DNA of 64,000 nt, taken from the NCBI GenBank assembly GCA_016706865.1, contig JADJIS010000003.1, forward strand, positions 18,030 through 82,029. Reading direction: 5' to 3'. The position numbers and the translations under genes are program-made. Shown one piece after another: positions 7,101 through 53,678 of this stretch. The first letter of the stretch is position 1; each line of letters starts with the position of its first letter. Origin of the DNA: Bacteroidota bacterium. GTDB taxonomy: Bacteria; Bacteroidota; Bacteroidia; Chitinophagales; BACL12. The notes under the pieces are model-generated. The model saw only the letters and a program-made list of their open reading frames with translations. It made no database searches and was not told where the DNA came from.

Positions 7101-7185
7101 TTGGCAAGGGCAGTTGGCAGTAGCAGTCACAGTCGCAGTCTCAGTTGGCAGTGGCAGTTGGCAGTTTGTAACATTGGAGTATTAT
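7101..7185 (+). repeat. tandem 6/7-mer array (NNNNCAG; GGCAGT words) ending in GGCAGTTTGTAACATTG
   Basis: Reads gggcag ttggcag tagcag tcacag tcgcag tctcag ttggcag tggcag ttggcag tttgtaacattg. The same terminal word closes each unit of the 8751-9145 array. Confidence 0.8.
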
Positions 7186-7218
7186 AGATCCAAAGGAAAA
7201 TTTGGGAAACCGGAAAAA

Positions 7219-7243
7219 GGAGAGAGGAGAAAGGAGAAAGGAG
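7219..7243 (+). repeat. purine-only heptamer array GGAGARA x3.5
   Basis: ggagaga ggagaaa ggagaaa ggag. Confidence 0.7.
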
Positions 7244-8750: not shown

Positions 8751-9145
8751 GAGTCACAGTGGGCAGTGGCAGTAGGCAGTGGCAGTGGGCAGTTTGTAAA
8801 AGTGATAATTGTTCCTTCGAGTAGAACTAATTGGAAGATCGAGAGTTAACAGTTGGCAGTGGTAGTTAAGAGTGGGCAGTCAACAGTGGGCAGTGGGCAG
8901 TTTGTAACATTGATGAATGTTCCTTCGAGTAGAACTAATTGGAAGATCGAGAGTTAACAGTTGGCAGAGGCAGTTAAGAGTGGGCAGTCAACAGTGGGCA
9001 GTGGGCAGTTTGTATCATTGATGAATGTTCCTTCGAGTAGAACTAATTGGAAGATCGAGAGTTAACAGTTAGCAGTGGTAGTTAAGAGTTGGCAGTCAAC
9101 AGTGGGCAGTGGGCAGTTTGTAACATTGATGAATGTTCCTCCGAA
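8751..9145 (+). repeat. 108-bp higher-order tandem repeat, about 3.6 copies
   Basis: Full units lie at 8811-8918, 8919-9026 and 9027-9134. A partial leading unit spans 8751-8810 and there is a short trailing piece. Each unit is a unique ~45 nt (GTTCCTTCGAGTAGAACTAATTGGAAGATCGAGAGTTAAC) followed by about nine AGTNNNN heptamers (agttggc agtggt agttaag agtgggc agtcaac agtgggc agtgggc agtttgt). Confidence 0.9.
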
Positions 9146-9287: not shown

Positions 9288-10610
9288 GTGGCAAAAAAAA
9301 ATGATATGCGGATCGAAAATGTTTTTAGTGTAAAAGATAATCAATCATTTCGCAATCAACTGCTAAATTATTCTTCAGGGTTTGAACATTTTGTTTTTTT
9401 GGATTCTTGTGATAATGCGGTGTATGGGGAGACGGAATTTGATTATTTATTTGCGGCGGGAAATTATGCAAGTTTAATTGCAAATGCCGGAAATGCTTTT
9501 GCGGAATTACAGCAATTTATAGATACCTATAAGGAGTGGTGTTTCGGTTATCTGGGGTATGATCTGAAAAATGAGAGTGAAAAATTATCGTCTAAAAACC
9601 AAGACAGGATCGCGTTTCCGGATATGTTGTTTTTTATTCCGGAGATTATTGTAAGGGTAAAAAATGGGGAAGTTAAAGTTTCAATTCTTTTAGAAAGTTC
9701 CATAACTTCCACTGGTGAAGAAATTTTTAATAATATTTGTGAGGAAAAAAGTGATATAAATTTTGAACGCAATAATATTAATTTATTACCTCGGATACCG
9801 AAAAAAGATTATCTCGAAAAAATAAATAAGATCCGCAAAAATATTATCGACGGTGATGTATATGAATTAACTTTTTGTCAGGAATTTTATAGTGAAAATG
9901 TTAACATAGAACCACTTATTGTTTTTCAGGAATTATGCAAAAAATCCAAAGCTCCCTTTTCCGTTTTATTTCGATGGGAAAATAAATATTTGATCTCCGC
10001 GAGTCCGGAGCGGTTTTTACAAAAGAAGGGCGATACAATTGTTTCTCAACCTATTAAAGGAACATCAAAACGCAGCTCCGATCCTTTGGTTGATGCACAA
10101 TTAAAAACTGAACTCTACAACAGCGAAAAAGACCGCGCAGAAAATGTGATGATAGTGGATCTTGTGCGCAACGACCTTGCACGCATTGGAAAAACCGGAA
10201 CAATTAAGGTTGATGAATTATTCGGAATTTATTCTTTTGAACAAGTGCATCAAATGGTTTCTACCATTTCGGCAAATGTAAAAGAGGATATTTTAATTTC
10301 AGATATTTTAAAAAATACTTTCCCAATGGGCTCCATGACCGGCGCACCAAAAGTGATGGCTATGGAACTAATCGAAAATTACGAAGAATCAAAACGCGGA
10401 TTATTTTCCGGCGCCTTCGGATATATTTCGCCTGAAGGTGATTTTGATTTTAATGTGGTAATTAGAAGTATAATATATGATGCATTGCAACAATATATTT
10501 CCGTTCAGGTAGGAGGGGCAATCGTTTTTGATTCGGTAGCAGAGAAAGAGTATGAGGAGTGCGTGTTGAAGTTGAGTGGGATTGTAGGGGTTTTTGGGGG
10601 TGGGACATAG
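9288..10610 (+). CDS. pabB: aminodeoxychorismate synthase component I (anthranilate/PABA synthase component I family)
   Basis: 440 aa. The chorismate-binding C-terminal domain carries PERFL, IKGT, SEKDRAENVMIVDLVRND and FPMGSMTGAPK motifs. The start is GTG 9288, with ATG 9306 as an alternative. The TAG stop lies inside the downstream heptamer array. Confidence 0.85.
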   Translation: MAKKNDMRIENVFSVKDNQSFRNQLLNYSSGFEHFVFLDSCDNAVYGETEFDYLFAAGNYASLIANAGNAFAELQQFIDTYKEWCFGYLGYDLKNESEKLSSKNQDRIAFPDMLFFIPEIIVRVKNGEVKVSILLESSITSTGEEIFNNICEEKSDINFERNNINLLPRIPKKDYLEKINKIRKNIIDGDVYELTFCQEFYSENVNIEPLIVFQELCKKSKAPFSVLFRWENKYLISASPERFLQKKGDTIVSQPIKGTSKRSSDPLVDAQLKTELYNSEKDRAENVMIVDLVRNDLARIGKTGTIKVDELFGIYSFEQVHQMVSTISANVKEDILISDILKNTFPMGSMTGAPKVMAMELIENYEESKRGLFSGAFGYISPEGDFDFNVVIRSIIYDALQQYISVQVGGAIVFDSVAEKEYEECVLKLSGIVGVFGGGT

Positions 10611-10662
10611 GACATAGGACATACGACATAGGACATACGACATAGGACAGACATAGGACAGT
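10603..10662 (+). repeat. heptamer array (GGACATA/CGACATA) about 8.5 units
   Basis: ggacata ggacata ggacata cgacata ggacata cgacata ggacaga cata ggacagt. The pabB stop (10608-10610) is part of the array. Confidence 0.9.
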
Positions 10663-10810
10663 GGAAATGTGATATAGGACTTGAATGGATTTAAAGTGAT
10701 AAATTTTATTTCTAACTAAAAGTTAGCGTTTAAATGTAAAATTTTCAATTAATTAGGATACACCTTTTTTATCCTTTCCCCAACCTTCCTTCCTTTTTCA
10801 ATCTTAGAAC

Positions 10811-10897
10811 CTTCCTCTTCGACTCTTCGAATCTTCTCCCTTCGAATCTTCAAGGACTTCCCCTTCGATTCTTCGAATCTTCTCCCTTCGAATCTTA
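10811..10897. repeat. 7/8-mer array (CTTCGAAT / CTTCTCC), containing a 26-nt unit twice
   Basis: cttcgaatcttctcccttcgaatctt occurs twice, at about 10827-10852 and 10871-10896. The array ends exactly on the stop codon (10895-10897) of the minus-strand CHAP gene. Confidence 0.85.
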
Positions 10898-25937: not shown

Positions 25938-26017
25938 GGGACACGGGACATAGGACACGAGACACAGGACATGGGACATGGGACACGGGACATGGGACAC
26001 GGGACACGAGACACGGG
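25938..26017 (+). repeat. heptamer array (GGGACAY) about 11 units; contains a G3N4 x5 quadruplex-type motif
   Basis: gggacac gggacat aggacac gagacac aggacat gggacat gggacac gggacat gggacac gggacac gagacac ggga. Begins 7 nt after the stop at 25929-25931. Confidence 0.9.
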
Positions 26018-26136
26018 AAAACAAAGGGTGGGATTTAGTTAAATTTTGGAAAAAATTTCGGCTCCTATTTTATTACTTCTTATTTGGCAAGTCAAATTAG
26101 AAATTAAATCCCAAATATTACGTTAACACGGCTGTT

Positions 26137-26186
26137 TAATTATCAATTATCAATTGTCAATTGTCAATTATCAATTGTCAATTGTT
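26137..26186. repeat. heptamer array (TRTCAAT) about 6-7 units spanning the waaA stop codon
   Basis: tatcaat tatcaat tgtcaat tgtcaat tatcaat tgtcaat. The waaA stop (26164-26166, minus strand) and its last ~5 codons (QLTIDN) are encoded by the array. Confidence 0.9.
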
Positions 26187-41957: not shown

Positions 41958-43058
41958 ATGGAAAAACTGGAGACTATTGATCTACCTGACCACAAACTTG
42001 CGGTAATTAATACCGACTTGATCAAAAATGCAAGATCAGTTGACCTGATTTATGTAAGTGATTCGCAGGAGGGCATTTTGCGCAAGCGAAGGGGCGCAGG
42101 ATTTTATTATGTTTTTAGGGACAAAACACTTAAAGATAAATTGGTTTTGGAGCGAATAAAATCTTTGGTGATTCCACCGGCATGGGAAAAAGTTTGGATA
42201 TGTTCAAAGGAGAATGGACATCTTCAGGTTACGGGTTTAGACAATAAAAAAAGAAAACAATATAAATATCATCCATTATGGAATTCTGTCCGCAACCAAA
42301 CTAAATTCTACCGTTTAAAGGAGTTTGGAAAAGTTCTGCCGATAATTCGTTTACAGTTGGAAAAAGATCTCTCTTTACCGGGTATGCCGGTTGAAAAAGT
42401 TTTGGCAACCATAGTTAGTTTAATGGAAAGAACGCATATCAGAATAGGAAATAATATGTATGAAAAATTGTATGGTTCCTTCGGACTTACCACATTAAAA
42501 GATAATCATGTTAAAATATCAGGTCAGGAATTGCGTTTTATTTTTAAAGGGAAAAAGGGAGTGGAGCATGATATTCATATAAAAAATAAAAAGTTATCGC
42601 GCATTGTTCAAAAATGTAAGGATATTCCGGGGAAAGAACTTTTTCAATATGTTGATGAATCCGGCACCAGAAAAACTGTTGACTCAGGAATGGTAAATCA
42701 TTATATTAAAACAATTTGCGGACAGGATTTTACTGCTAAAGATTTTAGAACCTGGGCCGGAACTTTGGAAGCATTACTTGCGTTTAAAGAAATTGGATTT
42801 TTTAATACAGTTACCGAATCAAAAAAGAATATTACGCAGGCTTTGGAAATGGTTTCCAAACAGTTGGGAAATACTAAAAATGTATGCAAAACTTATTATG
42901 TGCATCCGGTTGTATTGACGTTGTATGAGAATGGAACATTGAAGAAGTATATTAAAGAACTGGATGCTATTGAGGTGGATGATGATAAAGCTGGGTTGAC
43001 AAGTGCGGAGCTGGTGTTGATGAAGATATTAACTGGTGGGAAGCGGACGCTTCGATGA
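41958..43058 (+). CDS. DNA topoisomerase IB (poxvirus/eukaryote-like, bacterial form)
   Basis: PPAWEKVWI, the DNKKRKQYKYH region, FIFKGKKG, AKDFRTWAGT, and CKTYYVHP containing the catalytic Tyr context. Start placed at ATG 41958. The last 6 codons and the stop lie inside a REP element. Confidence 0.85.
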   Translation: MEKLETIDLPDHKLAVINTDLIKNARSVDLIYVSDSQEGILRKRRGAGFYYVFRDKTLKDKLVLERIKSLVIPPAWEKVWICSKENGHLQVTGLDNKKRKQYKYHPLWNSVRNQTKFYRLKEFGKVLPIIRLQLEKDLSLPGMPVEKVLATIVSLMERTHIRIGNNMYEKLYGSFGLTTLKDNHVKISGQELRFIFKGKKGVEHDIHIKNKKLSRIVQKCKDIPGKELFQYVDESGTRKTVDSGMVNHYIKTICGQDFTAKDFRTWAGTLEALLAFKEIGFFNTVTESKKNITQALEMVSKQLGNTKNVCKTYYVHPVVLTLYENGTLKKYIKELDAIEVDDDKAGLTSAELVLMKILTGGKRTLR

Positions 43059-43119
43059 ATGTTGCACAAGCCTAAGGCTTGCGCTATTTTTGTTGAGCTG
43101 CACGCCGAAGGCGTGCAGC
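43038..43119 (+). repeat. REP cluster, left: three GC-rich hairpins
   Basis: GAAGCGGACGCTTC (43040-43053), GCACAAGCC-TA-AGGCTTGCGC (43064-43084) and the perfect GCTGCACGCC-GAA-GGCGTGCAGC (43097-43119). Confidence 0.85.
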
Positions 43120-43310
43120 TATAGGCGTAAGGATTACATTTTTGCGTAATAATTAAAAAAAAAGTAGTGCCTGCCCATTAATTTTACTTTCCTTTAATTA
43201 ACAATTAAAAATTAACATGTTTTATTAAAGACACTCACCATTTTTTATTTTTTCTTTAAAATAATTGTATACATTTTTTTAACCGCTTAATAATTTAATT
43301 CTCGCTTCAT

Positions 43311-43361
43311 ATTTAATTTGAGGAGAAAAAATGGAACATTTTTTCTCCGTTCAAATTAAAT
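43311..43361. other. long AT-rich hairpin (23 bp in two helices with a 2-nt bulge, GAA loop) abutting the inverted REP upstream of the RAYT gene
   Basis: ATTTAATTTGAGGAGAAAAAATG-GAA-CATTTTTTCTCCGTTCAAATTAAAT, paired base by base by hand. Confidence 0.75.
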
Positions 43362-43408
43362 AGCGCAAGCCTTAGGCTTGTGCAAAATTCAGTAAAGCAT
43401 CCGCTTTT
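43358..43408 (-). repeat. REP, inverted copy
   Basis: GCGCAAGCCTTAGGCTTGTGC (43363-43383) is the exact reverse complement of 43064-43084. The flanking AAGCATCCGCTT is a diverged copy of GAAGCGGACGCTTC. Confidence 0.8.
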
Positions 43409-43455
43409 AATATTTTAATATTTCTTTTTATTTTTGAATTGTTTAATCCTTAATT

Positions 43456-44022
43456 ATGAGCAATAAATATAAATTTCGTAGTTACGAAGATCTTTATTTT
43501 ACTACACAAACTGTTGTTAATTGGGCAGATGTTTTTACAAGAAATTTGTATAAAAATATTGTCATCGACAGCTTGAAATTTTGTCAGGAAAAAAAGGGAT
43601 TGGAAATTTATGCATGGGTGATGATGACAAATCATCTTCATTTTATTTTGGGCACACATCAAAACCCTTTGAATGAAATTTTACGCGATTTTAAAAGTTA
43701 TACTTCAAGAAGAATTAAAGATGCGCTTTATAATAATAATTATGAAAGCAGAAGATATTGGTTAACACATATGTTTGAATATGAAGGGCATAAAAACAGT
43801 AATAATGAAGAATGGCAATTTTGGCAACAGGATAATCATCCAATTCGTTTATTTAATGCAGATATAACGAGACAAAAATTAAATTATATTCATAATAATC
43901 CGGTGAAGGCCGGGTTTGTGGAGGAACCGGCGCATTGGGTTTATAGTAGTGCAGGGGATTATTTGGCGGATAGGAAGGGGTTGCTCGACATTTTATTATT
44001 AGAAGGTTTATATTATGTTTGA
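43456..44022 (+). CDS. REP-associated tyrosine transposase (RAYT; IS200/IS605-like Y1 HUH transposase)
   Basis: 188 aa. HUH motif in AWVMMTNHLHFIL. C-terminal catalytic-Tyr helix context RQKLNYIHNNPVKAG. Flanked by REP hairpins. Confidence 0.85.
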   Translation: MSNKYKFRSYEDLYFTTQTVVNWADVFTRNLYKNIVIDSLKFCQEKKGLEIYAWVMMTNHLHFILGTHQNPLNEILRDFKSYTSRRIKDALYNNNYESRRYWLTHMFEYEGHKNSNNEEWQFWQQDNHPIRLFNADITRQKLNYIHNNPVKAGFVEEPAHWVYSSAGDYLADRKGLLDILLLEGLYYV

Positions 44023-44078
44023 GGGAAGCGGACGCTTCAAAGAACGTTGCACAAGCCTAAGGCTTGCGCTATTTTTAT
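44023..44078 (+). repeat. REP, right direct copy
   Basis: Starts 1 nt after the RAYT stop. Hairpins at 44025-44038 and 44049-44069 are identical to those in the left copy. Confidence 0.85.
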
Positions 44079-44149
44079 TAGATGCTAGCCTGCGGCTTGC
44101 AGTGTGTTGTGGGTGTAAGTCCATTGGATGAACTTTTGGGTGTGGGAGT

Positions 44150-44340
44150 GGTTTCGAATAGCCGGGTATAGCAGCCGAAAGCCGCTTTCTAGCCCCGATT
44201 GTAGCGGAAACCCCTGCCGTGAATGAATTTTATTTTTTAGTTAATACATTTTGCATAGGTTGGATTTTTGGGTTTGAATTGATTAAAATAGGCAGGGTTG
44301 CAGCGAAAAGCGGGGGCGCGGCCCTGAAAAAACGCCGCGG
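44150..44340. repeat. GC-rich REP-like islands downstream of the RAYT locus
   Basis: Contains GATTGTAGCGGAAACCCC (44197-44214), identical to 7017-7034, and GGTTGCAGCGAAAAGC (44296-44311), related to 7058-7073. Confidence 0.6.
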
Positions 44341-44445
44341 ATGGTGCTTTAAATGGTGTTTGTTGACAGATAGTTAATCTATTTCGCACAGATACTTGGC
44401 TATTTGAGGAAAACTACCGATATTTGCACTCTCATTTTAAGAAGC

Positions 44446-46122: not shown

Positions 46123-46182
46123 AATGTACCAATGTACCAATTAACAGCCAAATTAATGTACCAATTAACAGCCGCATTAACG
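46123..46182 (+). repeat. 8-mer/24-mer array (TGTACCAA; ATGTACCAATTAACAGCC x2) starting 9 nt after the ftsY stop
   Basis: aatgtaccaatgtaccaattaacagccaaattaatgtaccaattaacagccgcattaacg. Confidence 0.85.
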
Positions 46183-46286
46183 TAATAAAAATAAATTAAC
46201 ACTAATATCATCAATAACTTTTTAATTTAGTAAAATAATTCCACCATACCGATCACATAAGCAGCCGCAGGCAGCGGTTATATTGG

Positions 46287-46334
46287 GTTCATTGGTACAT
46301 TGGTACATTTAATTCATTGGTACATTTGATAAAT
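46287..46334 (+). repeat. inverted counterpart array (CATTGGTA x3) upstream of rimO
   Basis: ttcattggtacattggtacatttaattcattggtacatttgataaatg. Positions 46290-46308 are the exact reverse complement of 46123-46141. Confidence 0.85.
46320..46327 (+). promoter_or_regulatory. candidate Bacteroidota -7 promoter box TAcaTTTG for rimO
   Basis: Matches TAnnTTTG and lies 36 nt upstream of the rimO ATG. It is created by the last repeat word. No clear -33 TTTG was seen. Confidence 0.35.
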
Positions 46335-52930: not shown

Positions 52931-53014
52931 ATCAGGAGGTAATGGTCAGGAGTCATTAGTCAGGAGTCATTGGTCAATAGTCAATAGTCAATGGTCAATA
53001 GTCAGGAGTAAATG
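52931..53014 (+). repeat. heptamer array GTCANNR, 12 units in perfect phase
   Basis: atcagga ggtaatg gtcagga gtcatta gtcagga gtcattg gtcaata gtcaata gtcaatg gtcaata gtcagga gtaaatg. Begins 17 nt after the kinase stop. Confidence 0.9.
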
Positions 53015-53035
53015 CATCCGGATAGGAGGATCAAT

Positions 53036-53088
53036 CTCATTACTCCCGTCCGACCGGGTCGTCCGGGCGGGCATTACTCATTACTCAT
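53036..53088 (+). repeat. 53-nt direct repeat, copy A (GC hairpin + CATTACT heptamers), upstream of tRNA-Leu
   Basis: CTCATTACTCCCGTCCGACCGGGTCGTCCGGGCGGGCATTACTCATTACTCAT. Hairpin CCCGTCCG...CGGGCGGG at 53045-53071. Confidence 0.9.
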
Positions 53089-53184: not shown

Positions 53185-53266
53185 ACCGGAATGGTGGAAC
53201 TGGTAGACACGCACGTTTCAGAGGCGTGTGCCGCGAGGTATGCGGGTTCGAGTCCCGCTTCCGGTA
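53185..53266 (+). tRNA. tRNA-Leu (anticodon CAG), class II with long variable arm; CCA not encoded
   Basis: Hand-folded cloverleaf. Acceptor ACCGGAA/TTCCGGT. D-arm GTGG-AACTGGTAGA-CAC. Anticodon arm CACGT-TTCAGAG-GCGTG (U33, CAG, A37). 13-nt variable arm. T-arm GCGGG-TTCGAGT-CCCGC. Discriminator A. Confidence 0.9.
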
Positions 53267-53277
53267 CGAAATAAATG

Positions 53278-53344: not shown

Positions 53345-53375
53345 CGTGAATCGTCAATCGTGAATCGTGAGTCCG
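53345..53375 (+). repeat. 31-nt heptamer block CGTGAAT CGTCAAT CGTGAAT CGTGAGT CCG, copy A
   Basis: Repeats at 53549-53579 with 3 mismatches. Confidence 0.85.
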
Positions 53376-53492
53376 GGTGATGTGGTGTTTTCGGAGGATA
53401 TACTATCAACTTTATAGGATCTATCTCACCACTCAGCAATTTGTCAATAGTCATTAGTAAGGAGTAAAACTATTCGGCTGTCTGTAGGCAAA

Positions 53493-53545
53493 CTCATTAC
53501 TCCCGTCCGACCGGGTCGTCCGGGCGGGCATAACTCATTACTCAT
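53493..53545 (+). repeat. 53-nt direct repeat, copy B, downstream of tRNA-Leu
   Basis: 52/53 identical to 53036-53088, offset 457 bp. Weaker similarity extends about 50 nt further upstream in both copies (GTCAATAGTCA..GGAGTAAA). Confidence 0.9.
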
Positions 53546-53579: not shown

Positions 53580-53646
53580 ATATAGGTTCCATCCAGAATT
53601 GGGATTTACATTTGAAACTAACAGCTCCATGCGGTCTGTCTCACCA

Positions 53647-53678
53647 CCTGCCTGACGCTGACGCAGTCGGCAGGCAGG
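53647..53678. other. GC-rich hairpin CCTGCCTG..CAGGCAGG just 3' of the E1 dehydrogenase stop, followed by a CCACTCA heptamers
   Basis: cctgcctgacgctgacgcagtcggcaggcagg has an 8-bp outer stem plus inner pairs. No T-run on the minus strand, so it is REP-like rather than a canonical terminator. Confidence 0.6.

Follow-up and report, generated by a model that had tools for sequence, protein, structure and literature searches.

A probable subclass 2.6 REPtron in a Bacteroidota genome: a RAYT gene flanked by inverted REP hairpins

The described transposases closest to the system reported here belong to TnpA-Y1 subclass 2.6, which has been equated with group 5 of the tyrosine transposases associated with repetitive extragenic palindromes (REPs), or RAYTs, as defined by Bertels (Quentin et al. 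2018, PMC6006769). Subclass 2.6 proteins carry the motifs NH[LIV]H, WQ and YIH[QN]NP, have a median length of 179 aa and a tail with an SS motif, contain an insertion between helix C and strand 4, and occur in about 1.8 copies per genome (PMC6006769). They are reported from “mostly Bacteroidetes” and have at their flanks secondary structures described as atypical, hairpins without the GT[AG]G foot (PMC6006769, PMC5581495); the REP of the Aequorivita member, for instance, reads GCTAG-CGCGAGCG-TCC-CGCTCGTG (PMC6006769, Table S1). Here we describe a RAYT gene and its flanking hairpins in a stretch of 64,000 nt, hereafter the window, taken from a Bacteroidota bacterium (assembly GCA_016706865.1, contig JADJIS010000003.1, positions 18,030 to 82,029). 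What is known of RAYTs and REPs comes, to our knowledge, almost wholly from Proteobacteria, and given that focus a clean Bacteroidota example has some value.

Our findings make it likely that this locus is a REPtron of subclass 2.6 (RAYT group 5), in which an intact HUH/Y1 gene lies between inverted cognate REP hairpins. Membership of subclass 2.6 is suggested by the motifs, the type of REP and the host, and is set by these features rather than by direct sequence comparison with published members. The locus is an intact example of a published Bacteroidota RAYT class and not a new system; the novelty implied by the first-pass annotation, which was made from the sequence alone, therefore falls away, as the class has been described (PMC6006769, PMC5581495) and relatives of the protein are already labeled RayT by IMG and NCBI. 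Current understanding is unchanged, since the locus fits the published subclass description.

The RAYT gene occupies positions 43456..44022 on the + strand and encodes an intact protein of 188 aa, in which NHLHFIL spans N59-L65 and YIHNNP spans Y144-P149. The predicted HUH pair, assigned from the motif, is H60/H62, and the predicted catalytic tyrosine is Y144. In a profile of 28 relatives, no variation occurs at H60, H62, Y144, N148 or P149, and all residues that are invariant in the clade are present in the window protein. Besides NHLH, YIHNNP and its length, the protein displays the other marks of subclass 2.6, namely FWQQ and a YSSA tail motif at 163-166. The gene is present once in the window, and no TnpB partner lies beside it.

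Profile models separate the protein clearly from ordinary insertion sequence (IS) transposases. The NCBIfam model for REP transposases, NF047646 (REP_Tyr_transpos), matches it end to end with 101.5 bits against a cut-off of 80, whereas the IS200 model, NF033573 (transpos_IS200), fails with 24.5 bits against a cut-off of 55; the Pfam match is to the general Y1_Tnp family only. The structural evidence agrees. Among solved structures, the best match of the profile of 28 relatives is Escherichia coli TnpA-REP (4ER8), ahead of ISDra2 TnpA. An AlphaFold2 model of the protein, with a confidence (pLDDT) of 87, likewise has 4er8_A as its top Foldseek match in the PDB (E 5e-9, template-modeling (TM) scores 0.62/0.70, full-length alignment), while the IS608, ISDra2 and IS200 transposases rank below it at TM scores of about 0.4-0.47. 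The model also shows an extra helix at residues ~100-113, ahead of the WQ strand. We conclude that the protein is a RAYT, as the first-pass annotation had proposed from the HUH and tyrosine motifs and the missing TnpB. That annotation had named grouping with ordinary IS200 TnpA, together with flanking hairpins that occur nowhere else in the genome, as the outcome that would count against its proposal; neither the profile models nor the Foldseek ranking places the protein there, and an identity as ordinary IS200 TnpA was rejected on the failed IS200 model and on motifs that read NHLH and YIHNNP, not DH[VI]H and Y[IV]ENQ as in subclass 1.1.

Three copies of a two-hairpin REP unit accompany the gene. 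Unit A (43038..43094, + strand) consists of hairpin 1 at 43040-43053 (GAAGC-GGAC-GCTTC), hairpin 2 at 43064-43084 (GCACAAGCC-TAA-GGCTTGCGC) and a TATTTTT tail. Unit C (44023..44079, + strand) begins right after the RAYT stop codon and has hairpin 1 at 44025-44038 and hairpin 2 at 44049-44069. The two units form a direct repeat of 57 nt that is 93% identical; the repeat, with its two hairpins per copy, had been recognized before, although its length had been put at 56 nt. Unit B (43358..43408) is inverted, on the - strand, and reads on the + strand as ATAG-CGCAAGCC-TTA-GGCTTGTG (43360-43383) followed by AAGC-ATCC-GCTT (43395-43406). Its end lies 47 nt short of the RAYT start codon. As the inverted copy already proposed, unit B is 88% complementary to unit C over 49 nt (43358-43406/8). 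Units B (-) and C (+) bracket the gene in inverted orientation.

Two further hairpins belong to the same neighborhood. At 43096..43120, a perfect hairpin with an 11-bp stem, AGCTGCACGCC-GAA-GGCGTGCAGCT, has the GCAC..GTGC base of the REP, but a paired A-T replaces the A.C mismatch; it had been reported earlier at 43097-43119, slightly short of its full extent, and judged from its sequence only it may be a REP variant. At 44083..44101, the REP-related hairpin TGCTAGCC-TGC-GGCTTGCA has an upper stem in common with hairpin 2, and its counterpart in strain L001 (GCA_016708595.1) is the perfect TGCAAGCC-CGC-GGCTTGCA. An AT-rich spacer (43121..43357) lies between units A and B and is not conserved in the closest homologous locus. 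The hairpin is strand-asymmetric: as single-stranded DNA, TAG-CGCAAGCC-TTA-GGCTTGTG forms an uninterrupted 9-bp stem that includes a G.T pair, whereas the complementary strand has an A.C mismatch.

Within the window, these hairpins are well above chance. At no more than three mismatches, the 21-mer REP query identifies three sites (six strand-matches, the sequence being near-palindromic) against none in 100 shuffles, and the generalized signature hairpin occurs three times against an expected 0.33. Five of the 15 GC-rich hairpins in the whole 64 kb are at the RAYT locus.

The arrangement extends well beyond this genome. The protein has more than 3000 homologues, and Bacteroidota account for most of those with a named source (Mucilaginibacter, Pedobacter, Rufibacter, Panacibacter and others); several are already annotated as “REP element-mobilizing transposase RayT” (IMG, NCBI). 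We surveyed 80 homologous metagenome loci, together with several retrieved by exact look-up, and 84 loci were used to measure enrichment of the signature (CAC, an arm of 4-8 nt, a loop, the complementary arm and GCG), which was drawn from the window, so that the A.C mismatch is imposed by the search pattern. The upstream and downstream 350-nt flanks hold an inverted repeat of at least 28 bits in 52 of the 71 loci for which both flanks were available, as against none of 49 controls. Signature density reaches 1.38 per kb in these flanks and 0.021 per kb elsewhere in the same loci, a roughly 65-fold difference in which the latter value is about that of chance. Orientation is biased as well: upstream copies favor the minus strand by 32:5 and downstream copies the plus strand by 31:6, a rule to which units B and C conform.

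The hairpins of the relatives also vary in ways that preserve their structure. Upper stems differ from locus to locus (AAGC, GAGCG, GGATT, ACGAT, GCGTT and others) yet stay paired. The outer pair, which the search does not impose, covaries: of 70 distinct clade hairpins, 41 have G-C there and 18 have C-G, and the position is paired in 90%. Tails, likewise left free by the search, mostly read xxAG, with CCAG the commonest form, and on the complement the foot is CTGG or CTAG in most of these 70 hairpins and CTAC in five. Tails are not T-rich at dozens of relatives' loci. The closest homologue, 63% identical in amino acid sequence and located in another gene context, shares the two-hairpin unit, and its hairpin 1 is identical. 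The flanking hairpin arrangement is thus a property of the whole protein clade, which bears out the earlier suggestion that this RAYT is flanked by REP hairpins of its own, and the joint variation of protein clade and hairpin type is as expected for a cognate pair of nuclease and substrate.

Comparison with characterized systems places the locus nearest to the subclass 2.6 members of Aequorivita sublithincola (AFL81591.1) and Fluviicola taffensis (AEA44309). Motifs, a length of ~180 aa, the SS tail, the Bacteroidetes host, low copy number and flanking hairpins without a GT[AG]G foot are shared, and the Aequorivita REP has the CGC..GTG stem base and xTAG foot found in the window and in the loci surveyed above. 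The window differs from this group in three respects: its foot is ATAG with a T-rich tail instead of CT[AG]G, its units carry a second, baseless hairpin (GAAGC-GGAC-GCTTC), and unit A adds a further same-strand copy 254 nt upstream. E. coli TnpA-REP (YafM; subclass 2.2, group 2) is the best match of known structure and resembles the window protein in having an HUH motif and a single tyrosine followed by xxNP; its gene is likewise single-copy and lies between inverted REP hairpins whose stem is imperfect and whose 5' foot is unpaired. The two proteins are, however, only 18% identical, and the E. coli foot is GTAG, with hundreds of REPs per genome, whereas the window RAYT has the helix insertion (~100-113), a longer tail, another foot and no dispersed copies in 64 kb.

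With the IS200/IS605 transposases (IS608, ISDra2, IS200), the protein shares the core of the HUH/Y1 fold and, by homology, the presumed use of subterminal single-stranded hairpins, and the placement of units A and C on one strand recalls the left and right ends of such elements. It differs from them in scoring below the IS200 cut-off, in having YIHNNP rather than Y[IV]ENQ, and in the lower TM scores; the locus has no TnpB and is seen in one copy in the 64 kb, and the flanks of the clade are inverted. The REPINs of Pseudomonas fluorescens SBW25, which accompany group 3 RAYTs, are similar in that inverted REP pairs stand beside a single-copy RAYT gene. They are, however, short doublets in hundreds of copies. 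The A/B pair, the only inverted pair of the window apart from the one that flanks the gene, was considered as a REPIN and rejected: its arms of 71 nt are 79% complementary but stand 254 nt apart, and the window holds no second copy.

How such a system might act can be outlined by homology with E. coli TnpA-REP, to which we owe our expectations about binding, cleavage site, strand choice and current activity. A monomeric enzyme would bind the hairpin of a REP where the DNA is single-stranded, as it is at a replication fork, and would read the strand-asymmetric base of the stem, A.C on one strand and G.T on the other, together with the adjacent unpaired foot, ATAG in the window and CT[AG][GC] in relatives. 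Cleavage would proceed via Tyr144, with the metal held by His60/His62, and would be followed by rejoining; the outcome would be that REP units, and not the gene itself, are moved or rearranged. With its defined two-hairpin unit, strand-asymmetric base and non-GTAG foot, the locus would offer a convenient substrate-enzyme pair for the study of DNA recognition in subclass 2.6.

Several observations weigh against the reading as a REPtron, and they concern the number of hairpins, their form and the state of the gene. No REP copy was detected in the 64-kb window outside the RAYT locus, and relatives show 17 dispersed copies in 460 kb (within 10 kb on either side of the gene), mostly within 2 kb of it. 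The ATAG foot and T-rich tail of the window REP are unusual even within the clade, and in units A and C a TATTTTT tract comes after hairpin 2; a terminator scan flags both units as terminator-like. Truncated products are encoded by about three quarters of the contigs listed for the protein cluster at 90% identity. One truncating allele, Q18* (C43507T, which changes codon 18 from CAA to TAA), was confirmed in the retrieved contigs L218, L219, L221 and L222 and recurs in many contigs of the species, among them one of 1.43 Mb from GCA_963852155.1. At least nine sibling-strain contigs have a GC-rich palindrome of 28 nt, ACCCGCCTGAATGACAAAGTCGGGCAGG (L214:1935-1962; L215-L217), in place of T43890, a net insertion of 27 nt that was likewise confirmed in retrieved contigs; the palindrome sits inside YIHNNP and changes the product to ...NYIPA*. 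Finally, a sister species lacks the RAYT at this site, with 993 nt missing, including the spacer between units A and B.

The sister species (GCA_044227505.1, contigs L224 and L225) has a topoisomerase IB that is 87% identical to that of the window and the same gene order, PAS kinase, topoisomerase IB, rpmB, rpmG, DUF4295 and ftsY. What it keeps is a single hybrid REP unit (L224:4581-4694) with a degenerate hairpin 2; the left context and the start of the linker are A-like, the end of the linker and the right context are C-like, and the linker reads GATGAACGTT. This footprint fits a deletion by recombination between the direct repeats A and C, an enzyme-mediated joining of same-strand REPs, or an insertion in the reverse direction. 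Some truncated product lengths imply that Q18* and the palindrome insertion occur together, which suggests recombination or recurrent mutation. Taken together, the truncated alleles and the sister species without a RAYT indicate that selection to keep the enzyme is weak. The RAYT locus is not stably maintained; the gene is decaying in the population, and the intact window copy represents one allele at a locus where purifying selection is weak or absent. These natural nulls (Q18*, the hairpin insertion and the lack of the cassette in the sister species) would allow the number and position of REPs to be compared with and without an active RAYT.

The alternatives to a REPtron with a working enzyme are not all mutually exclusive. 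The one that survives best is that the locus is a dead relic, in which the enzyme is intact by chance, has no REP population to act on and is heading for loss. It draws on the two disrupting mutations in many sibling contigs, some alleles apparently with both, on the sister species, which is without the cassette and has a degenerate hairpin 2, and on the lack of dispersed REPs in 64 kb. The catalytic and clade-invariant residues are, however, all intact in the window, and every strain examined, broken-gene strains included, keeps all three copies of hairpin 2 perfectly intact. The empty window is also what published densities lead one to expect: the 16-mers flanking group 5 genes average 31 per replicon (Bertels et al. 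2017, PMC5581495), or about one in every 100-200 kb, so that zero copies in 64 kb and few near the genes of relatives do not refute REP status. We regard a dead relic as somewhat unlikely.

The REP family of this locus is probably small, and searches beyond the window bear on its size. A scan of a genome collection with GCRCAAGCCNNNGGCTTGYGC, a self-complementary and permissive query, returned at least 120 loci, mainly unrelated GC-rich palindromes from many phyla, and the source species was not among them. Among the 120 loci listed, none shares more than the core with the 57-nt unit, none has a RAYT within 8 kb, and only two, L026 and L075 from Cytophagia, resemble related REPs. The first (L026:3345-3410), from a Microscillaceae metagenome-assembled genome, contains a two-hairpin unit like that of the window; the second (L075:246-501), from a Cytophagia metagenome-assembled genome, contains four tandem units of 79 nt, each with GCACAAGCC-GGT-GGCTTGCGC. 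Both stand without a RAYT within 8 kb, which indicates that REPs of the window type are dispersed in at least some Bacteroidota. The exact 21-mer had no match in the metagenome collection, from which the organism is apparently absent, so this result is uninformative on copy number. When peptides from three reading frames of the REP unit were compared with 5.8 billion proteins, one candidate shared words and none was significant, which is weak evidence against the presence of many REPs inside called genes.

A different possibility is that the cassette is still self-mobile in the manner of IS200, so that a block of 985-993 nt (a single REP unit plus the spacer, unit B and the RAYT) is inserted or excised as a whole through cuts at equivalent points of A and C, as at the ends of IS608. 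In one version, the RAYT still moves or is excised with one REP unit by such cuts, leaving the hybrid REP of the sister species. In a further reading, a second, unrelated family of ~28-nt palindromes, akin to the hairpin-plus-heptamer modules described below, is mobile and has knocked out the RAYT at its catalytic motif in sibling strains. These accounts appear unlikely. The 28-nt insert resembles a hairpin at 53645-53674 of the window at 22 of 28 positions, so it may come from a second family of small mobile palindromes.

The self-mobile cassette by itself we consider decidedly unlikely. In its favor, units A and C are same-strand direct repeats, the sister species has the same synteny without exactly this block and with one hybrid unit left, the closest homologue sits in another gene context, and dispersed REPs are few. 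Homologous recombination between the 57-nt direct repeats gives the same footprint, however; the clade-wide arrangement is inverted and not direct, and the protein fails the IS200 model. The whole cassette is present once in the 64 kb and in a single context in every contig with the exact protein. The outgroup (68% identity in topoisomerase IB) has a different synteny, so that its gene order favors neither insertion nor deletion. If the cassette did move with one REP unit, subclass 2.6 REPtrons would be a living intermediate between IS200-type insertion sequences and domesticated RAYTs.

It is highly improbable that the hairpins are mainly terminators or mRNA stabilizers of the topoisomerase IB and RAYT genes that were duplicated locally and are not enzyme substrates: units A and C do stand at the 3' ends of these two genes with terminator-like tails, but unit B lies upstream of the RAYT and points the other way, and dozens of loci without T-rich tails retain, along with the protein, the A.C/G.T base, the ..AG foot and the orientation rule. 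REPs are known to serve both as terminators and as substrates, so that one role does not rule out the other (PMC6006769).

The locus also bears on the end of the adjoining gene. The DNA topoisomerase IB gene (41958..43058, + strand) lies outside the system, and its 3' end is made by REP unit A, the first 21 nt of which (43038-43058) supply its stop codon and the six codons before it (GKRTLR). In other topoisomerase IB homologues the protein ends 1-8 residues, mostly three, after MKIL, whereas the window species and its sister end in MKIL(T/N)GGKRTLR, the ending of the window species being MKILTGGKRTLR; this ending is absent from more distant homologues.

The first-pass annotation had further suggested that the other GC-rich hairpins and the heptamer arrays of the window might be mobilized cargo or substrates of the RAYT. 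None of them carries the REP sequence or signature, and the link was rejected for lack of any common sequence or signature in the window. The arrays themselves lie at 7117-7243, 8757-9144, 10603-10896, 25938-26185, 46131-46326, 52932-53014 and 53345-53370. They include intergenic arrays of 7-nt units (GGGACAC x11.6, AATTGTC x6.9, GGACATA x8.7, AGTCAAT x7.7 and others) and a 108-nt repeat (x3.4) made of CAGTGGG units, all unrelated in sequence to the REP. A module of 57 nt, in which CATTACT-type heptamers lie on either side of the hairpin CCGACCGG-GTCGT-CCGGGCGG, occurs twice (53032-53088 and 53489-53545, 96% identical), and the two modules bracket a tRNA-Leu(CAG) gene at 53185-53267.

The RAYT is preceded by topoisomerase IB and followed by rpmB-rpmG-DUF4295-ftsY, and six of six contigs that encode the identical protein show the same gene context. 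GenBank source names for the identical protein and the neighboring FtsY are Chitinophagales or Bacteroidota bacterium. When positions 42990-44420 were compared with contigs L001-L004, scattered single-nucleotide polymorphisms and a 1-nt indel were present in the intergenic flanks relative to GCA_016708595.1, which indicates that the window represents a different strain, or a different assembly, of the same species. The identity of the RAYT coding sequence in five contigs despite these flanking polymorphisms was discounted because the contigs had been chosen by exact protein identity. Just 5' of rpmB, in front of the L28/L33 genes, a Flavo-1 RNA motif (RF01705, 45.2 bits against a gathering score of 42) lies at 44187-44321 on the + strand, and the 1 kb around it is 93% identical in the sister species.

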